From the NCBI GenBank assembly GCA_964426185.1, contig CAYRPF010000100.1:1-9193 (forward strand): a DNA stretch of 9,193 bases, written 5' to 3'. Positions 1,910 through 9,193 of this stretch are shown here, piece by piece (the stretch's first letter is position 1; each line of letters opens with the position of its first letter). Position numbers and translations under genes: made by a program. Under the pieces are notes generated by a model, which did not search any database, was not told the origin of the DNA, and saw nothing but the letters and a program-made list of their open reading frames with translations. The DNA comes from an uncultured archaeon. Its GTDB lineage: Archaea; Asgardarchaeota; Lokiarchaeia; Sigyniarchaeales; Promethearchaeaceae.

Positions 1910-3115
1910 ATGACAGTATATTTTGCCTTTTTACTTCATATTTACCAACCTCCAGTTCAAATTGCGCCAGTGATCAAACAAATCGTAAAAGAATCTTATC
2001 GTCCTATTCTGGATGCTTTACGAGATCATCCCGAAGCAAAAATTACTTTAAATATCAATGCAACTTTGACTGAACAACTCGATGATTACGGGTATCAAGA
2101 TATTATTGAAGGAATTTCCACCTTAGCTTCACGTGGACAAATTGATTTTACCGGATCGGGCAAATTTCATCCACTACTACCTTTAATCCCCGAACCTGAA
2201 GTTCTTCGGCAGATTGAATTAAACACGCAAACCAACCGTCAATATTTCGGAAACATTTATCAGCCCAGGGGATTTTTCCCACCAGAAATGGCTATTAGTG
2301 AAGAGATTTTTCCCGCAATTAAAAAATCTGGATTTGAATGGGTGATTTCTTCTGGAATCGCTAACACATTACCGGAATTTCCCAGCACTTTCATTTCGGA
2401 ACATGAAAAAATTGGGCTGAAATTGGTCTTTCGCGACGATTTAATCTCCATTGATTGTGCATTCGATAAGATAAACACCGTTGAAACATTTGCCCAACGA
2501 TTGAAGTATAAAAATCAAGATCATGACTACTATGTTATTCTGGCAATGGACGGCGAAACTTTCGGACATCACGTGAAACATGCCATAAAAAATTTCTTAA
2601 TTCCGCTGTTTGATGCACTACCCCATCGTAATGACATCAAATTATGCACTATTTCTGAAATTATTGATCACTTTCCAACAGGTTCAAAACAAATTCCTCG
2701 TGCATCAAGTTGGAGTACAATGCCGTATGATATCGAGCGAAAGGTTCCATTTCCACTATGGTTTGATCCAAATAATAAATTACATCAAGAACAACACCGA
2801 TTTATTATGTATGCCCTTACCACAGTGCATTTAGCTCAAAAATACCGAGAAAGAATGAGCAATGAACAAAAACAGTTATTGGATAATGCCCGAAATTTTC
2901 TCGATCGGGGGATTCATTCTTGTCAACAATGGTGGGCATCTAAACGCCCATGGTACTCACCCGATATGATTATTCGAGGATTAAGTGAAGTTTTATTGGC
3001 CAGTGTGAATGCTAAGCGCAGCATTCCACCTGAAGCAGATGATATCCAAGAAGCCATGAATTTAATCTTAGATGATATGCTTAAGGCACAAAATCTTATA
3101 ATTAAAACCCTGTAA
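1910..3115 (+). CDS. Glycoside hydrolase family 57 protein (alpha-glucan-active; amylase/amylopullulanase-like)
   Basis: GH57 conserved regions: LHIYQP, FHPLLPLI, FFPPEMA (nucleophile Glu), LAMDGETFGHH (acid/base Asp) and ASSWS. No evident signal peptide, so probably cytoplasmic. Confidence 0.92.
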   Translation: MTVYFAFLLHIYQPPVQIAPVIKQIVKESYRPILDALRDHPEAKITLNINATLTEQLDDYGYQDIIEGISTLASRGQIDFTGSGKFHPLLPLIPEPEVLRQIELNTQTNRQYFGNIYQPRGFFPPEMAISEEIFPAIKKSGFEWVISSGIANTLPEFPSTFISEHEKIGLKLVFRDDLISIDCAFDKINTVETFAQRLKYKNQDHDYYVILAMDGETFGHHVKHAIKNFLIPLFDALPHRNDIKLCTISEIIDHFPTGSKQIPRASSWSTMPYDIERKVPFPLWFDPNNKLHQEQHRFIMYALTTVHLAQKYRERMSNEQKQLLDNARNFLDRGIHSCQQWWASKRPWYSPDMIIRGLSEVLLASVNAKRSIPPEADDIQEAMNLILDDMLKAQNLIIKTL

Positions 3116-3246
3116 TACTAGAAATATTCATCAATTCAGAGATTTATATTACTTAAAACATAACAAGAAAAATCATAAATATCAGTGCTTCAATATTAGG
3201 AATAAGTATTGTATTATATGATAAAAAATTCAAGTTTGGAATTAAA

Positions 3247-4170
3247 ATGGCAGATAATGCAGGCTTTGGGAACAATAACGATAAAAAAGAAAAATCTAAT
3301 CTTCTCGAGAAGAAAAAAATTATAGATTTCGACAAATTTCGCCAAGATTTTGAGCAATTCGTTGAAAATATCAACCCCCTCAAAATTTTTGAAACAAATC
3401 AAACCAACCAATTAAATAAGGAACCTCTAACAGCGATGCAAACAAGTAATTCCAAGAATAAACTGGATATTTCTAACAGTTCTCAAGATGAAAATTTTAC
3501 AAATGAGTGGTCTCAGTATACACAATCTGTCCAAAAAGAGATGGAAAATGCCCAAGAACAAAAATTCCAGCGACAAAACCAACAATTAGCCAAAAAAATT
3601 AAGAATAAAAACAGATTGAAACGTCGGCAAACTCGATTGCATAATCGTCAAAATCGTGAGCGAGAACGGCTGAAAGCATTTTTTATCCAACAACAAAAGG
3701 AATTCCGTCAAAAATTGGCCGAAATCGAACAAAATCGGAAAGAAAAGCGTCAGAAAATTCAACAAATTACCAAATTGACCCATAAGGAACTGCAACTTCA
3801 AAATCAAACAATAATGCAGGAAAATAGGGAACTGCAACAAAAAATTCGGGAACACAGAAGAACCCTTCGTCTAAAACGAAGAGCAGCCCGACAAGCCCGA
3901 CAACAAATGAGTACACAAATGCGAAAAGAATATTTAACAGAAACACAACAAATCCGACAACAGAGCTGGAACAGATTCCTCCGTCAGCAGCGAAGACGAA
4001 CTGAACGATTTTTAAAATATTCCAATCGATTGTGGTGGCGGGGTTATTTGAGTTTACTCGCTTGGATTGTGGGAATTTTCTTGATTCTCATGGGAATCTT
4101 TTATATCTTTAAATTTTTAGGAATTGATTTGATCGGTTTGGTGCTACAAAACACTACAAATGCTGGTTAA
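3247..4170 (+). CDS. Hypothetical tail-anchored coiled-coil/charged-helix membrane protein (paralog A)
   Basis: 307 aa. N-terminal amphipathic segment (FDKFRQDFEQFVENI), polar linker, proline-free Q/R/K/E-rich helical region from about aa 85 to 262, then NRLWWR and one hydrophobic span at about aa 267-288. No signal peptide. Confidence 0.85.
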   Translation: MADNAGFGNNNDKKEKSNLLEKKKIIDFDKFRQDFEQFVENINPLKIFETNQTNQLNKEPLTAMQTSNSKNKLDISNSSQDENFTNEWSQYTQSVQKEMENAQEQKFQRQNQQLAKKIKNKNRLKRRQTRLHNRQNRERERLKAFFIQQQKEFRQKLAEIEQNRKEKRQKIQQITKLTHKELQLQNQTIMQENRELQQKIREHRRTLRLKRRAARQARQQMSTQMRKEYLTETQQIRQQSWNRFLRQQRRRTERFLKYSNRLWWRGYLSLLAWIVGIFLILMGIFYIFKFLGIDLIGLVLQNTTNAG

Positions 4171-4186
4171 TTATAGTTAATTATAG
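4166..4186. repeat. 10-bp tandem direct repeat (GTTAATTATA x2) spanning the stop of paralog A and the intergenic spacer
   Basis: gttaattata at 4166-4175 and 4176-4185, plus g at 4186. Confidence 0.75.
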
Positions 4187-4192
4187 AAAGAG

Positions 4193-4900
4193 ATGGAAAA
4201 AATGACTCGCTCACGTAAAGGATTATTCAATCAGCCTATAAGGGATCTTATAAGAAATCTAGAGAAAATTGGAGATGAATTAAACAACTTTTTTTCTCCA
4301 AAATCCAATCCGAATGATAATGAATTAAAATCTGAGCAATCAGAACTTGATTTATCAGAAATTACACCTGAAGAAAAAGAAGAGTTAGAAAAAGAATTGC
4401 CATTGCCAATGAAAATTGCACGCGGTTGGCAAGATTTTGTTCTAAACACCCAAAAAACTTTAGAGCAATTTGAATCCGAGATGCAACAGAATCATTTACG
4501 ACGATTGGAAAGGATGAGAAAACGACAGAAAAACGCACGACAACGACGATTAGAGCGAATAAAAAAAAGAGAAGAGCGCTTAGAAAAGAAATTCAAACAA
4601 GAAATGGAAGAGTTTGAAGCTGCCAATCAACGATTGAATGAAGAATTTTTGGCGATGCAAAATGATTTGTATCAAAAAAAATCCGCCCAGCGTGATAAAT
4701 TTCATTCAAATTTAGCAGCCACTCAAAACAAATGGGAAAGAGTAAGTAGGAAAAGACAACGCAATATTGAAGGAATTTTGAAGGGAATCAATCGCTGGGG
4801 CTGGCGACAACAGCTTCGTATCGTTCTAATTCTTATTCCTTTGATTGTGGTACTTGTACTGGTTATAATCTTGATTCGTCCTTTTCTAACTGTTATATAA
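4193..4900 (+). CDS. Hypothetical tail-anchored coiled-coil/charged-helix membrane protein (paralog B)
   Basis: 235 aa, 22 bp downstream of paralog A. Same layout: amphipathic N-terminal segment (IRDLIRNLEKIGDELNNFF), acidic linker, long R/E/K/Q helix, NRWGWR and a very hydrophobic C-terminal span at about aa 210-228. Confidence 0.85.
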   Translation: MEKMTRSRKGLFNQPIRDLIRNLEKIGDELNNFFSPKSNPNDNELKSEQSELDLSEITPEEKEELEKELPLPMKIARGWQDFVLNTQKTLEQFESEMQQNHLRRLERMRKRQKNARQRRLERIKKREERLEKKFKQEMEEFEAANQRLNEEFLAMQNDLYQKKSAQRDKFHSNLAATQNKWERVSRKRQRNIEGILKGINRWGWRQQLRIVLILIPLIVVLVLVIILIRPFLTVI

Positions 4901-5502: not shown

Positions 5503-6072
5503 ATGGGACTACGATTAATCGGAAAATCAATTAAACTGGCAATGCGAAGTCGCCGTCGTTTTATTGTATTTACTTTAATGTACACCGTTTTAATGGCATG
5601 GATGGCTTCAAATTTTGAAACATTCTTCTATAAAGAAGGCGATCCAACAGAAAACGAATGGCTGATGTTAGGGATTTCTATCGTTTCTACACTTATTTTA
5701 TCAATATTATATGCTTGGATTGTTATTAATTATCGCAAGCGGGAAATAGCAACTCTAAAATGTATTGGATATACTAATGCAAATATCCGCACGATTATTA
5801 TTGGGGAATTAATGTGGGTTACTTTTGTGGCATTCGTATTAGTTGCGGAAGTTCTAATCCATATTACCGCTGCAATAACTTATTTCTATTCACAAGCAGC
5901 AAATTTCCCTGGATTAGAAGAATATCACCAGATAACGCGTCCGTTATTAAGTATTTGGCCAATAACAATTACATTAGCTATGTTTATCGTTGCTCAAGTT
6001 CTAGGTATTACTGCAATGTATGCAAAAATACTAAAGCTGAGGCCAATTGTGGCGTTGAGGGTGTTAAAATAA
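5503..6072 (+). CDS. FtsX-like/MacB-type (type VII) ABC permease, minimal form without a large extracytoplasmic domain
   Basis: N-terminal basic amphipathic helix (KLAMRSRRRF), four hydrophobic spans, the coupling motif RKREIATLKCIGYT...IIIGE and the C-terminal KLRPIVALR signature. Confidence 0.88.
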   Translation: MGLRLIGKSIKLAMRSRRRFIVFTLMYTVLMAWMASNFETFFYKEGDPTENEWLMLGISIVSTLILSILYAWIVINYRKREIATLKCIGYTNANIRTIIIGELMWVTFVAFVLVAEVLIHITAAITYFYSQAANFPGLEEYHQITRPLLSIWPITITLAMFIVAQVLGITAMYAKILKLRPIVALRVLK

Positions 6073-6078
6073 AGGAGG
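6073..6078 (+). promoter_or_regulatory. Shine-Dalgarno site (AGGAGG) for the ABC ATPase
   Basis: AGGAGG immediately after the permease stop, with a 7-nt spacer to the ATG at 6086. Supports a bicistronic operon. Confidence 0.7.
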
Positions 6079-6085
6079 AAGAAAA

Positions 6086-6766
6086 ATGCCAGAAGTCATG
6101 ATAAAATTGGAAAATGTTCAAAAAGAATTCCGCCTACGAGGCAATATCATTCGTGCATTAGCAGATGTAAATTTAACGATCAATGCAGGCGAATTTGTGA
6201 TCATTATGGGTCCAACAGGTTGTGGAAAAACCACTCTTTTGAATGTAATGAGCGGATTGGATCTCCCTGATGATGGAACTGTCATTGTTGACGGAGAAAA
6301 AATTGAACGTGCTACCGAAGAACGGCTAAGTAATATTCGACGCCGAAAAATTGGATTTGTTTTTCAAGATTTCAATCTGGTCGAGAACCTAACTGCAATC
6401 GAAAATGTAGAAGCTGTGTTATGGCCGGGAGTTCTCCGTTCTAAGGAAATTGAAGATCGTGCCATTGCAGCACTCCGAAAAGTGGATTTGCTCGATCGTA
6501 AAGATAATTTACCGAAAGAATTATCGGGGGGGGAAAAACAAAGAACAGCAATTGCCAGAGCGATTATTCATAAACCCCGAATTCTGTTTGCAGATGAACC
6601 TACTGGAAATTTGGATAATGAAGCTGCCCGCCAAATTATGGAATTACTAAAACAACTCAATAAAGAAATGGGTACTACGATGTGCATTGTTACTCATGAT
6701 AAAGGGTTAGTTAAATACGGAAACCGATTGGTCGAAATGGAACATGGAAAAGTCGTTAAGTCTTAA
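6086..6766 (+). CDS. ABC transporter ATP-binding protein, LolD/FtsE/MacB (MJ0796-like) family
   Basis: Walker A GPTGCGKTT, Q-loop IGFVFQ, signature LSGGE, Walker B/D-loop ILFADEPTGNLD and H-loop IVTHD. Confidence 0.96.
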   Translation: MPEVMIKLENVQKEFRLRGNIIRALADVNLTINAGEFVIIMGPTGCGKTTLLNVMSGLDLPDDGTVIVDGEKIERATEERLSNIRRRKIGFVFQDFNLVENLTAIENVEAVLWPGVLRSKEIEDRAIAALRKVDLLDRKDNLPKELSGGEKQRTAIARAIIHKPRILFADEPTGNLDNEAARQIMELLKQLNKEMGTTMCIVTHDKGLVKYGNRLVEMEHGKVVKS

Positions 6767-6816: not shown

Positions 6817-7335
6817 TTATCTTTTATTTCCAACTACTTTAAAGCTATAATATCGATCTAAAAGAAATTTGGTGACATATCCAAAAGTTAATGCAATTAT
6901 AATTCTAACATTTAGAATCCAATTTGTCCAAATTCCCAAAAGAAATTGAATGAGTAAATTTTCTCCTGTAGTTAATATGGCAAAAATAAAATAAAGTCCG
7001 AATTGTCGACCCATTTCCTTAAAATGAGTGGAATTCCTGCGAAAGACCACAAATTTATCTAAAAAAAATTTTAACACATAAGTAATCAATACGGCCAAAG
7101 CTGACCCTACTATTTCTGGCATATTATAAGGATTGGTTGAGAGATACACAGTTTGGAAAAAGGGAATCGAATTTAGTCGGGGTTCCAGCCAAGGATATAT
7201 CACTACCAAGTGGAAATTCTGGATCACGATGTTTAACAAGACCATTAATACTGCAAATGTAAAATAGGTAAAAATTTGAAACCCAAGAGAGGGTAGTGGT
7301 GGATTTAGTTTCTGGGTGTGATCCTTGATAACCAT
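6817..7335 (-). CDS. GtrA-like four-TM membrane protein (putative lipid-linked sugar flippase or scaffold)
   Basis: Two internally repeated helix pairs, starting QIFTYFTFAVL and QFGLYFIFAIL and ending YVLKFFLDKFVVF and YVTKFLLDRYYSF, as is typical of the GtrA duplicated architecture. Confidence 0.78.
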   Translation of the reverse strand: MVIKDHTQKLNPPLPSLGFQIFTYFTFAVLMVLLNIVIQNFHLVVIYPWLEPRLNSIPFFQTVYLSTNPYNMPEIVGSALAVLITYVLKFFLDKFVVFRRNSTHFKEMGRQFGLYFIFAILTTGENLLIQFLLGIWTNWILNVRIIIALTFGYVTKFLLDRYYSFKVVGNKR

Positions 7336-7428
7336 TATTTAATTTAATATGGGATATATTTTAAAAATACTAAGATATTATGGAAAAAAAAAGGAATATT
7401 CAAATTTTTGGCATGCATTAATAAATTA

Positions 7429-8079
7429 ATGTTATTAATACGTGCTCCAACTTCGGTTGTTTTACAGATTGTAGGAATTTCTATATTAATGATAATTTTA
7501 TCACAATGGTTTTCTCGAAAATTTTCCGTTTCTGCAGAATCTCAAATGCAAACCCAAATGCTGGTTCAAGATCTGCAAGATCAACTACGTGCTGCTCAAA
7601 ATGATAATAATTCCCAATTAATTGCCCAAATCAATGAAGAAATGATGGTACTTCTGCGTGAAATGTCAAAAAAACAGTTTTTACCCATGATTATCCGCTC
7701 AATAGCTTTTTTTGCTATTTGGGGCCTGATGAAGTTGTTATACGGTAATTATGATGAATATATATATATTTCTGAGAGTCTGGTAATTCGATCAATCTTC
7801 ACACTGTATTTAATTATTGCTCTTCTTTCATCCGTTGTAATTACAATTGGAAAGAAATTGTATCTAAAAATGCATCCGGAAAAGAAGAAAAATAAAGAAT
7901 TAGTGGTGGATAAAATTCGGGCTTTGCAATCCAATATTATCTATACTTCTGAAAATCCAACTACAAATAATGCCCAAAACCAATATTCAGATGCTAGTTC
8001 CTCTTCAATGTTAAATTCTGATTTAAATACACCCCAAATTAAGAAAGAGAAAGGGTGGAAAGAGCGTTTGGAGCAATAG
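7429..8079 (+). CDS. DUF106/EMC3/TMCO1 family (Oxa1 superfamily) membrane insertase-like protein
   Basis: TM1, then a helical hairpin (QDLQDQLRAAQNDNNSQLIAQINEEMM), then MSKKQFLPMIIRSIAFFAIW (family-like QFxPM entry to TM2), then TM3 (IFTLYLIIALLSS). The ATG at 7429 is preferred over the listed TTG at 7408. Confidence 0.75.
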   Translation: MLLIRAPTSVVLQIVGISILMIILSQWFSRKFSVSAESQMQTQMLVQDLQDQLRAAQNDNNSQLIAQINEEMMVLLREMSKKQFLPMIIRSIAFFAIWGLMKLLYGNYDEYIYISESLVIRSIFTLYLIIALLSSVVITIGKKLYLKMHPEKKKNKELVVDKIRALQSNIIYTSENPTTNNAQNQYSDASSSSMLNSDLNTPQIKKEKGWKERLEQ

Positions 8080-8128: not shown

Positions 8129-9193
8129 TTAGAAAAGATTTCCGTTGATAAAAGCCCTAATGTACTTTTCGTATAAAGTAGCCCAGCGGGTAGGAATTGA
8201 AGTGGCAATTGCACACCCTAATCGACATCCTTTACAAAATGGAAAGCCATCTTTCATATCCATGATCTGTTTTGCCTCATATGAATGGTAAACATCACAT
8301 AAAGGATATTTCTTTACATTGACGCGAAGAACGGGATGAATTTTGCATGGTAAAACCACCTCACCTTTATAATTAATAACGATAAACGCCCGCGCAGAAA
8401 CACAATGCAACAAATTTTGATAACCAAAACCCCCTGCTTCAATAATATCAGCACTTATCGTATCTGTAATGATGTTTGGATATATTTTAACCAGTCTTCG
8501 GATTTCAGCTGCGTATTTATGAAGATCCGGGATAAATGAGAAAATATCATCTACGATGTGAGGGGTATCTTGTTCCCGAATTATATTTTCACATGGAAGC
8601 ATTTCAATCATAGCACCGAGTTTTTGTGCCAATTTGCTCATTTCTTCCATGTATGGGAGATTTTCCTTGGTGATGACCATTGATATAATTACTATTTTTC
8701 TTTCTAAAACGGCTGCCCTAATTCCTTTAATGGTTTGCTTAAAAATGGGAATCCCTCGATATTGATCGTGTTTTTCTGCAAAAGGCCAATCTAATGAAAC
8801 CATAATTAATTCAGCATCTTTAAACTTCTGAGTTTTAATCAATTGGTATAACAAAAGACCATTTGTGGCCACCGTCGGCATCATTCCTTTCTGTTTCGTA
8901 TAAGAAATTAATTCTGGCAAATCTTTTCGAAGAGTTGGCTCTCCGCCGGTGAAATTTACCACCTGAACATCTAATTTGTGCAGTTCATCAATGATTCTCT
9001 TAACTTCATTAGTTTTCATTTCTTGGGCCAATTCTTGCTGAAAATCAGGATGCCAAATGGAACAGAAGACACACTTTGCGTTACATTTTAGTGTGAGTTC
9101 GATTTGAGCGTTAAGGGGCTTGTAAATATGGTTAAAGGAAAAATTATTGAGGGTAAAATTCTTTGCAAATCGCAGATAGTTCAATCGAGTCAT
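8129..9193 (-). CDS. Radical SAM enzyme with C-terminal SPASM/Twitch-like cysteines, substrate unknown
   Basis: CNAKCVFC (Cx3Cx2C), FTGGEP, VATNG and VSLD motifs. The C-terminus has C-x12-G-x5-C and CKGCRLGC. The ATG is at the very edge of the window, so the start cannot be confirmed. Confidence 0.93.
   Translation of the reverse strand: MTRLNYLRFAKNFTLNNFSFNHIYKPLNAQIELTLKCNAKCVFCSIWHPDFQQELAQEMKTNEVKRIIDELHKLDVQVVNFTGGEPTLRKDLPELISYTKQKGMMPTVATNGLLLYQLIKTQKFKDAELIMVSLDWPFAEKHDQYRGIPIFKQTIKGIRAAVLERKIVIISMVITKENLPYMEEMSKLAQKLGAMIEMLPCENIIREQDTPHIVDDIFSFIPDLHKYAAEIRRLVKIYPNIITDTISADIIEAGGFGYQNLLHCVSARAFIVINYKGEVVLPCKIHPVLRVNVKKYPLCDVYHSYEAKQIMDMKDGFPFCKGCRLGCAIATSIPTRWATLYEKYIRAFINGNLF

Follow-up and report, generated by a model that had tools for sequence, protein, structure and literature searches.

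Exploring a 9193-bp stretch of Asgard archaeal DNA, which is an entire contig (G000:C100; hereafter the window), we found that two neighbouring genes, A and B, encode diverged paralogues of an undescribed family of tail-anchored proteins, in which a long helical rod with an 11-residue hydrophobic repeat leads into a single C-terminal membrane segment. The family is restricted to the order Promethearchaeales ('Loki') and is nearly universal there, and where both paralogues occur their genes lie in tandem. We tentatively read the pair as a scaffold that may line the inner face of the membrane. An earlier note on this DNA, drawn up by a model from the letters alone, had pointed out two co-oriented genes 22 bp apart in an Asgard archaeon and had proposed a heterodimeric membrane tether, fusogen or scaffold of no recognised family. 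The gene arrangement is as the note described it (Table 1). The host is likewise an Asgard archaeon: it shares its genus with Ca. Harpocratesius repetitus, of which strain FW102 (G001) is placed by NCBI in the order Promethearchaeales, and a Loki profilin gene adjoins the pair.

The hydropathy scan and AlphaFold2 gave A and B one common architecture, consisting of an N-terminal helix, a disordered linker, a long helix and a C-terminal transmembrane (TM) segment. The N-terminus is hydrophilic in both proteins. Their only hydrophobic stretch is C-terminal, ending ~17 residues before the end of A and 6 residues before the end of B, and an N-terminal hydrophobic region that could serve as a signal peptide is absent from both. 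They are therefore tail-anchored by the definition that asks for one TM domain only, no more than ~30 residues away from the C-terminus, and for the absence of a signal peptide (10.1101/810531). The motif W-x2-(Y/F)-x4-QK-x2-E marks the start of the rod in both (residues 88-100 of A, residues 79-91 of B). The membrane-proximal 28-residue segments align without gaps with 12/28 residues identical, and BLASTP retrieved the same stretch at an E value of 0.006; as the sole proof of kinship this similarity would be marginal. The relationship became clear when alignments of orthologues were compared. Aligned by hhalign, the profiles of 8 B orthologues (alignment A1) and 8 A orthologues (alignment A2) matched with 98.3% probability and an E value of 1.4e-14 over 190 columns, spanning the N-terminal helix, the rod start and the juxtamembrane motif and extending into the TM segment, with a mid-rod insertion of ~58 residues in A relative to B. 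Given that the profiles match over 190 columns despite the weak pairwise similarity, A and B are true paralogues, as the earlier note had held.

The AlphaFold2 model of A, built on 24 A-type sequences, shows a helix at residues 28-42, disorder at 43-82, one helix running from 83 to 290 with a predicted local distance difference test score (pLDDT) >90 over residues 110-250, and a short helix at 295-304. The model of B, built on 8 sequences, shows a helix at 13-34, disorder at 35-58 and one helix from 71 to 234 that continues into the TM segment (pLDDT >90 over residues 100-160). A small residue (Gly, Ser or Ala) at the junction of rod and TM segment may act as a hinge. The basic and aromatic juxtamembrane motif is the best-conserved part of alignments A2 and A4, with W241, W263, W264 and Y267 of A invariant or nearly so. 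Hydrophobic moments of the juxtamembrane segment are 0.40-0.59 in A and 0.44-0.58 in B, and its charge is +5 to +6 and +4 to +5, respectively.

The earlier note had described the rod as a long charged helix and had compared the architecture with that of coiled-coil SNAREs and golgin tethers. Long and charged it is, but it is not a canonical coiled coil, its hydrophobic residues recurring with a period of 3.65 and not 3.5 residues. Fourier analysis of hydrophobicity placed the peak at 3.65 residues (11/3) for B, with a power of 14.8, and at 3.55-3.65 for A, and the spectra averaged for 63 family members and for 20 single-copy relatives were both sharp at 3.65. As a control, the same script was applied to a heptad coiled-coil protein encoded in the rod loci, which peaked at 3.45-3.5. 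The 58 residues before the TM segment also peak at 3.65 and not at 3.5. An 11-residue repeat brings with it a hydrophobic stripe that runs nearly straight along the helix, and when B is written in rows of 11, F82, F93, L148, L159, F170, W181 and I192 share one column. The stripe is sparse and rich in Phe, Trp, Leu and Met; across the family F makes up 14% of it, W 12% and L only 10%, figures that carry some bias as the hydrophobicity scale gives Trp a high weight. Lys and Arg lie closer to the stripe than Glu and Asp family-wide, and the polar face carries basic residues throughout. The net charge is +33 for the rod of A (residues 86-265), including +9 within the 18 residues 113-130, and +14 for the rod of B; whole orthologues range from +4 to +30. 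A HeliQuest-type lipid-binding discriminant exceeded 1.34 in 49% of the 18-residue windows of A and 44% of those of B as compared with 1% in the control coiled coil, and was highest in the juxtamembrane segments.

Searched exhaustively with a profile, a set of 1.84 billion representative proteins returned 89 matches, including ~77 plausible member clusters that carry both the Trp motif and a TM segment; the longer matches among the 89 involved the rod only and were marginal. Scanning 400 genomes of the phylum, we detected the family in four taxonomic families of one order (f1, 9/13 genomes; f2, 1/1; f3, 109/135; f4, 3/4), and the other 246 genomes yielded 1 marginal match, to the rod alone. 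A word-based homologue search gave 4 close matches only, and a related-locus search with a single protein gave Ca. Harpocratesius repetitus only. The typical genome of the order carries one B-like copy of ~155-205 amino acids (aa) with 4-11 Trp residues, a roughly neutral charge and a Pro-containing TM segment like that of B. A and B occur together in four f1 genera, and both Asgard archaea in culture are among the carriers: Promethearchaeum syntrophicum MK-D1 (G011; A copy DSAG12_01908) and Ca. Lokiarchaeum ossiferum B-35 (G010; B copy NEF87_004359), where these copies are annotated as 'hypothetical protein'. In 8/8 genomes having both genes A lies next to B, with gaps of 9-48 bp, confirming the tight tandem.

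All single copies scored (23/23) fit the B profile better than the A profile, indicating that of the two copies B is the conservative one, of ancestral type. In a tree built from the last 125 residues, the A clade had a support of 98 and the B group one of 93, and the two subtrees mirror each other. Taken together, the tandem, the profile preference and the tree argue for a single duplication after which A diverged faster. They point to an event inside one family (f1), A and B probably having been inherited since then as a two-gene operon, and comparison of the sequences points to A having gained its Gly-containing TM segment, the WW-K/R-G-Y junction and an extra tail helix after the duplication. 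The earlier note had read the pair as the parts of a heteromeric complex. A diverged pair is indeed kept in tandem, but a heteromer is not a family-wide property, most genomes of the order being single-copy. The literature searched on tail-anchored Asgard and Loki proteins holds no description of the rod family, nor does it mention any of six locus tags (DSAG12_01908, NEF87_004359 and those of their immediate neighbours).

Searches of Pfam, NCBIfam and PDB with A, B and their relatives gave no match above threshold, in agreement with the claim that the proteins belong to no characterised family. Matches below threshold were of the 'helix + TM' or amphipathic-repeat type (LMBR1, Tweety, Prominin, Rifin, DUF6594, Apolipoprotein, Synaptobrevin). 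The ESM Atlas returned by sequence the family's own archaeal cluster only, and by structure generic long helices (ATAD3_N, caldesmon, MAP7), which are uninformative. Among the systems compared, SNAREs (synaptobrevin/R-SNAREs, PF00957, and the prototypic SNAREs of Heimdallarchaeota; 10.1101/810531) are likewise small and tail-anchored, with a helix that runs into the TM segment through a basic, Trp-containing juxtamembrane segment. The rods differ from them in length (135-185 residues as against ~55 in a SNARE), in the 11-residue repeat, in having one or two paralogues and in being confined to one order. The SNARE motif is heptad-based, spans ~53 residues directly before the TM domain and has 16 hydrophobic layers with a central ionic 0-layer (Q/R) (10.1101/810531); in the rows-of-11 layout, the rods have no heptad register to which such layers could be assigned. 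PF00957 did not match A or B at E values up to 0.1 and exceeded its cut-off in 0/61 related genomes. The B copy of L. ossiferum reached 21.6-24.2 bits over PF00957 positions 6-86 (cut-off 26.4), the sole such case among 27 scanned members and single copies; the other rod loci were at noise level, and similar noise was seen in 10/14 control prokaryotes. The analogy to SNAREs and golgins drawn by the earlier note is thus not upheld, and SNARE membership was rejected on both the profile match and the heptad 16-layer motif, the tail-anchored topology being all that the rods share with the SNARE definition. In family f3, PF00957 also matched recurrently (positions 3-60, up to 22.5 bits, ~13 loci) to open reading frames (ORFs) of ~250 aa. 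The two that were sampled, L049:1210-1962 (+) in G046 and L050:1211-1957 (+) in G057, are soluble coiled coils without a TM segment and hence not SNARE-like.

Other known systems resemble the rods in design. The eukaryotic tethers golgin-84, giantin and CASP also combine a cytoplasmic rod with a tail anchor and lack a signal peptide; they are heptad coiled coils of hundreds to thousands of residues, and the family differs from them in periodicity, with no homology detected. The peripheral stalks of ATP synthases, of which F-type b/b' and A/V-type E/G are right-handed hendecad coiled coils, share paired long helices, the 11-residue periodicity and side-by-side genes, as well as membrane anchoring in the case of b/b'. 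In contrast to b/b', which are anchored at the N-terminus, the rods are anchored at the C-terminus, are striped with aromatic residues and are strongly cationic. Neither PF00430 nor any other stalk family matched among 19 members at E values up to 0.05, and the rod genes, whose neighbours encode an aminotransferase, glycoside hydrolase family 57, profilin and FtsX/ABC proteins, do not belong to an ATP-synthase operon; the resemblance is one of design only. Exchangeable apolipoproteins (ApoA-I/A-IV/E, PF01442; apoLp-III, PF07464) share the 11/3 periodicity and the basic residues flanking the hydrophobic face, and alpha-synuclein, perilipins and CCT-alpha domain M are other 11-mer amphipathic helices of lipid surfaces. 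PF01442 scored at best 31.5 bits against a cut-off of 90 (A copy of G008) and PF07464 18.9 against 36.3, and ApoA-I came top of the PDB profile search at an E value of 0.011. Unlike apolipoproteins, the rods lack Pro and hence Pro-punctuated 22-mers, are anchored by a TM segment instead of being soluble or secreted, and have a narrower hydrophobic face. The weak apolipoprotein matches reflect the shared 11-residue amphipathic periodicity and not homology. The nearest analogues in design are therefore the 11-mer lipid-surface helices and the hendecad stalk pairs, and the rods belong to neither.

Table 1. Features of the window, with the basis of each assignment
Feature	Position	Strand	Basis and remarks
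Gene A	3247-4170	+	ORF, 307 aa; derived paralogue (A-type), net charge +31; orthologues aligned in A2
A N-terminal amphipathic helix	3328-3372 (residues 28-42)	+	AlphaFold2, pLDDT 61-79 over residues 21-40; aligns with B N-terminal helix (hhalign)
A linker, disordered, variable, rich in N, S, Q, T	3373-3492 (residues 43-82)	+	pLDDT <50 over residues 50-78; gappy in A2
A cytoplasmic rod (predicted)	3493-4041 (residues 83-265)	+	One unbroken helix without Pro; AlphaFold2; rows-of-11 layout
A juxtamembrane motif, basic/aromatic (W-N-R-F ... N-R-L-W-W-K/R-G-Y)	3967-4050 (residues 241-268)	+	Alignments A2, A4
A Gly-containing TM helix	4045-4116 (residues 267-290)	+	Hydropathy scan, AlphaFold2
A short helix after TM	4129-4158 (residues 295-304)	+	AlphaFold2; part of A-type G-I/V-D/N-L tail motif; A-type members only
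A-B spacer	4171-4192	+	22 bp; 9-48 bp in 8 pair-bearing genomes
Gene B	4193-4900	+	ORF, 235 aa; conservative, ancestral-type paralogue, net charge +12
B N-terminal amphipathic helix	4229-4294 (residues 13-34)	+	AlphaFold2, low confidence; conserved in alignment A1
B cytoplasmic rod (predicted)	4403-4807 (residues 71-205)	+	AlphaFold2; clear 11-residue hydrophobic stripe
B juxtamembrane motif, basic/aromatic (W-E-R-V ... N-R-W-G-W-R-Q-Q-L)	4733-4816 (residues 181-208)	+	BLASTP A vs B, alignment A1
B TM helix, invariant mid-helix proline P216	4811-4879 (residues 207-229)	+	Hydropathy scan, alignment A1
AT-rich TATA-like box TTATATGATAAAAAA, candidate promoter	3214-3228	+	Centre ~26 nucleotides 5' of gene A ATG
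Class I/II aminotransferase gene, cut by contig end	2-1030	+	PF00155, E 1.6e-26; of all neighbours the one kept most constantly beside the family throughout the order
Glycoside hydrolase family 57 gene	1910-3115	+	Between aminotransferase gene and A
Loki-type profilin gene, 127 aa	4948-5331	-	Convergent with B, 47 bp away; 5yed/5yee E 2e-22, 5zzb E 5e-21
Small FtsX-like permease (189 aa) and ABC ATPase (226 aa) genes	5503-6766	+	PF02687 (permease); tightly linked
GtrA-like gene	6817-7335	-	
EMC3/DUF106 (Oxa1-superfamily) insertase gene	7408-8079	+	
Radical-SAM/SPASM gene	8129-9193	-	

The spacing of A and B is consistent with their co-transcription. Judged by the usual geometry of archaeal promoters, the TATA-like box ahead of gene A is a candidate promoter, and its position suggests that the transcript of gene A is leaderless or nearly so. 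The start of gene B is ambiguous, with in-frame ATGs at 4193 and 4202, three codons apart; a public copy (P0003) has the 232 aa expected from the second ATG, so B may start at 4202. Rfam gave no match in the window.

In the family that carries the pair, the gene order is aminotransferase, variable genes, A, B, convergent profilin, FtsX-like/ABC, GtrA, EMC3/DUF106 and radical-SAM. The aminotransferase gene cluster (C1) was present in 27/31 loci examined. The glycoside hydrolase gene occurs in this genus only (the window and G001), and other genera have other insertions before A, e.g. PIN-like and small antitoxin-like genes in L019 and L020. The profilin gene, whose product scored below the threshold of Pfam Profilin (18.7 as against 25 bits), is the immediate neighbour of the pair in 6/8 pair-bearing genomes and lies within 4 genes in 8/8. 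Most of the pair-bearing loci examined keep the FtsX-like/ABC gene pair beside the profilin gene. In the sister family f3, the lone rod gene is divergent from the same aminotransferase gene, and behind the latter lie a gelsolin-repeat gene and a heptad coiled-coil gene in 18/19 loci. The former, two genes from the rod gene, encodes a two-domain protein (PF00626, E 1e-27; e.g. L031:3453-4457 (-)), and the latter, beside it, an HMMR_N-like protein of 355-470 aa. The orthologous profilin gene of f3 and the orthologous gelsolin gene of f1 lie hundreds of kilobases from the rod genes, indicating that the two families have put different actin-regulator genes near the rod gene. Although the region has been rearranged, the insertase, GtrA-like and radical-SAM genes lie no more than ~8 kb from the rod gene in f1 as well as in f3. 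In f3, the rod gene and a LysE-type transporter gene are closely followed by a gene whose 680-aa product has a RING-like zinc finger (sub-threshold; L031:7432-9471 (-)) at its C-terminus and by a proteasome subunit gene (L031:9594-10208 (-)).

Considering A and B together, we lean, with due reserve, towards a lineage-specific membrane-lining scaffold in which cationic amphipathic rods rest on the anionic inner leaflet, a reading that we regard as possible and still tentative. Insertion of A and B would be post-translational and would leave the N-terminus on the cytoplasmic side; the genome carries an ArsA/Get3-family ATPase gene, and so do 14/14 control genomes, and the EMC3/DUF106 insertase gene belongs to the conserved neighbourhood. 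The rod of A (~185 residues, 27 nm) and that of B (~135 residues, 20 nm) would run along or near the anionic inner face of the membrane, with the Trp/Arg juxtamembrane segment at the interface of the cytoplasmic leaflet. A would stand beside B, contacting it via their conserved but different TM and juxtamembrane segments, and the resulting skeleton would lend stiffness or shape to the envelope (e.g. to the long protrusions that these archaea have) and would not be a fusion machine. In favour of the membrane-lining arrangement are the high lipid-binding discriminant, the closeness of basic residues to the stripe, the small residue at the junction of rod and TM segment and the weak apolipoprotein matches. 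Topology, A:B contact, in-plane rod orientation, the scaffold role and any link to actin are what we infer from these features. Several points weigh against such a scaffold. The hydrophobic stripe is narrow (~3/11 positions) and very sparse where A is most basic (residues 100-140), a thin basis for stable adsorption to a membrane. The charge of single-copy relatives is close to neutral (-3 to +13), indicating that the cationic character is not required family-wide, and the rod of A varies from ~130 to ~208 residues independently of that of B. AlphaFold2 draws rod and TM segment as one straight helix, which would equally fit a projecting stalk, and both the contact of A with B and the in-plane orientation are things that we infer.

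In a second reading, A and B would form a parallel, near-straight or slightly right-handed hendecad coiled coil, two-stranded or of higher order, that projects 20-30 nm from the inner face of the membrane and whose flexible linkers hold out the N-terminal helices to a partner, as a C-terminally anchored counterpart of b/b' or E/G. Such a stalk agrees with the narrow stripe and with the AlphaFold models roughly as well as the membrane-lining scaffold does: the periodicity is that of a hendecad, the surface outside the stripe is highly charged, and the helix is continuous with the TM segment at pLDDT >90. The retention of a diverged tandem in which each copy has its own conserved TM segment is typical of obligate heteromers, and the N-terminal helix and linker are conserved in A, B and some single copies. 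Yet a parallel pair of rods with charges of +33 and +14 would repel itself unless neutralised by a polyanion, two-stranded cores seldom contain as much Trp and Phe as the stripe does, and the rods of A and B are unequal in length without covariation. A single copy suffices in most of the order, and the search of 19 members for the ATP-synthase b family, reported above, was negative. We consider the stalk somewhat unlikely. The strong positive charge could also mean that the very basic rods of the pair-bearing family, with an isoelectric point of ~10, tether nucleic acid or ribosomes to the membrane in the manner of basic tail-anchored ribosome or chromatin anchors. The net charges of A (+31), B (+12) and the orthologues would suit this function, as would the +9 stretch of A and the basic residues all over the polar face. 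It is nevertheless very unlikely: the near neutrality of single-copy relatives means that polyanion tethering cannot have been the ancestral function, no nucleic-acid-binding domain was detected in A, B or the members scanned, and the annotated conserved neighbours include no nucleic-acid-related gene.

The recurrent vicinity of profilin and gelsolin genes is suggestive of a functional link to the rods, and a membrane-actin linker, in which cationic rods would pin Lokiactin filaments to the membrane by binding along these acidic filaments or by recruiting the actin regulators encoded nearby, could be combined with either a lining or a stalk. The pair converges on the profilin gene and the f3 single copy lies close to the gelsolin-repeat gene at the frequencies given above, the two adjacencies look separate given the distant position of the respective orthologues, and the rough chance of lying at most 2 genes from one of ~10 such genes is ~1% per lineage. 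The actin-regulator genes, however, are never in the transcription unit of the rods, being either convergent or divergent with the aminotransferase gene in between, and as the whole region is syntenic across the order their adjacency may be inherited gene order. WH2, gelsolin and other actin-binding Pfam families gave no match in A, B or the members scanned, and the single copies are not cationic. A WH2-like N-terminal helix was considered and dropped, there being no LKKV-type motif and no Pfam match. We therefore find the linker improbable, and we set an equally low probability on the combined picture of a membrane-side part of the Lokiarchaeial cell cortex, i.e. a tail-anchored 11-residue-repeat skeleton that lines the leaflet and is coupled to Lokiactin or its regulators. 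Among the roles of tether, fusogen and scaffold raised by the earlier note, that of fusogen is the least likely. A SNARE-like fusogen or golgin-like tether, whose tail-anchored coiled coils would zipper membranes or capture vesicles, agrees with the tail anchors of A and B, with the basic WW / WxW juxtamembrane motif, which resembles that of synaptobrevin, and with the score of the L. ossiferum B copy, which lies below the PF00957 cut-off. Against it stand the empty PF00957 scan with its similar noise in control prokaryotes, equally strong spurious matches to LMBR1, Tweety, Prominin and Rifin, a period of 3.65 in place of the heptad of the 16-layer motif, and the presence of one or two paralogues in a single order instead of four SNARE types; it is hardly credible.

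The Promethearchaeales include the only cultured close relatives of the archaeal ancestor of eukaryotes, and the organisation of their unusual membranes and protrusions is of interest. What is new here is an undescribed family with an 11-residue-repeat rod, a juxtamembrane motif, two types of TM segment and a history that points to a single duplication. It is not a SNARE, and the rod family can be taken off the list of Asgard SNARE candidates. The recurring vicinity of profilin and gelsolin genes provides a lead for studies of membrane-cytoskeleton coupling. If the cortex picture were true, the rods would contribute to the formation or stability of the long protrusions in MK-D1 and L. ossiferum, with the A/B duplication giving rise to a heteromeric version, and they would constitute a previously unrecognised archaeal membrane skeleton without a eukaryotic homologue.

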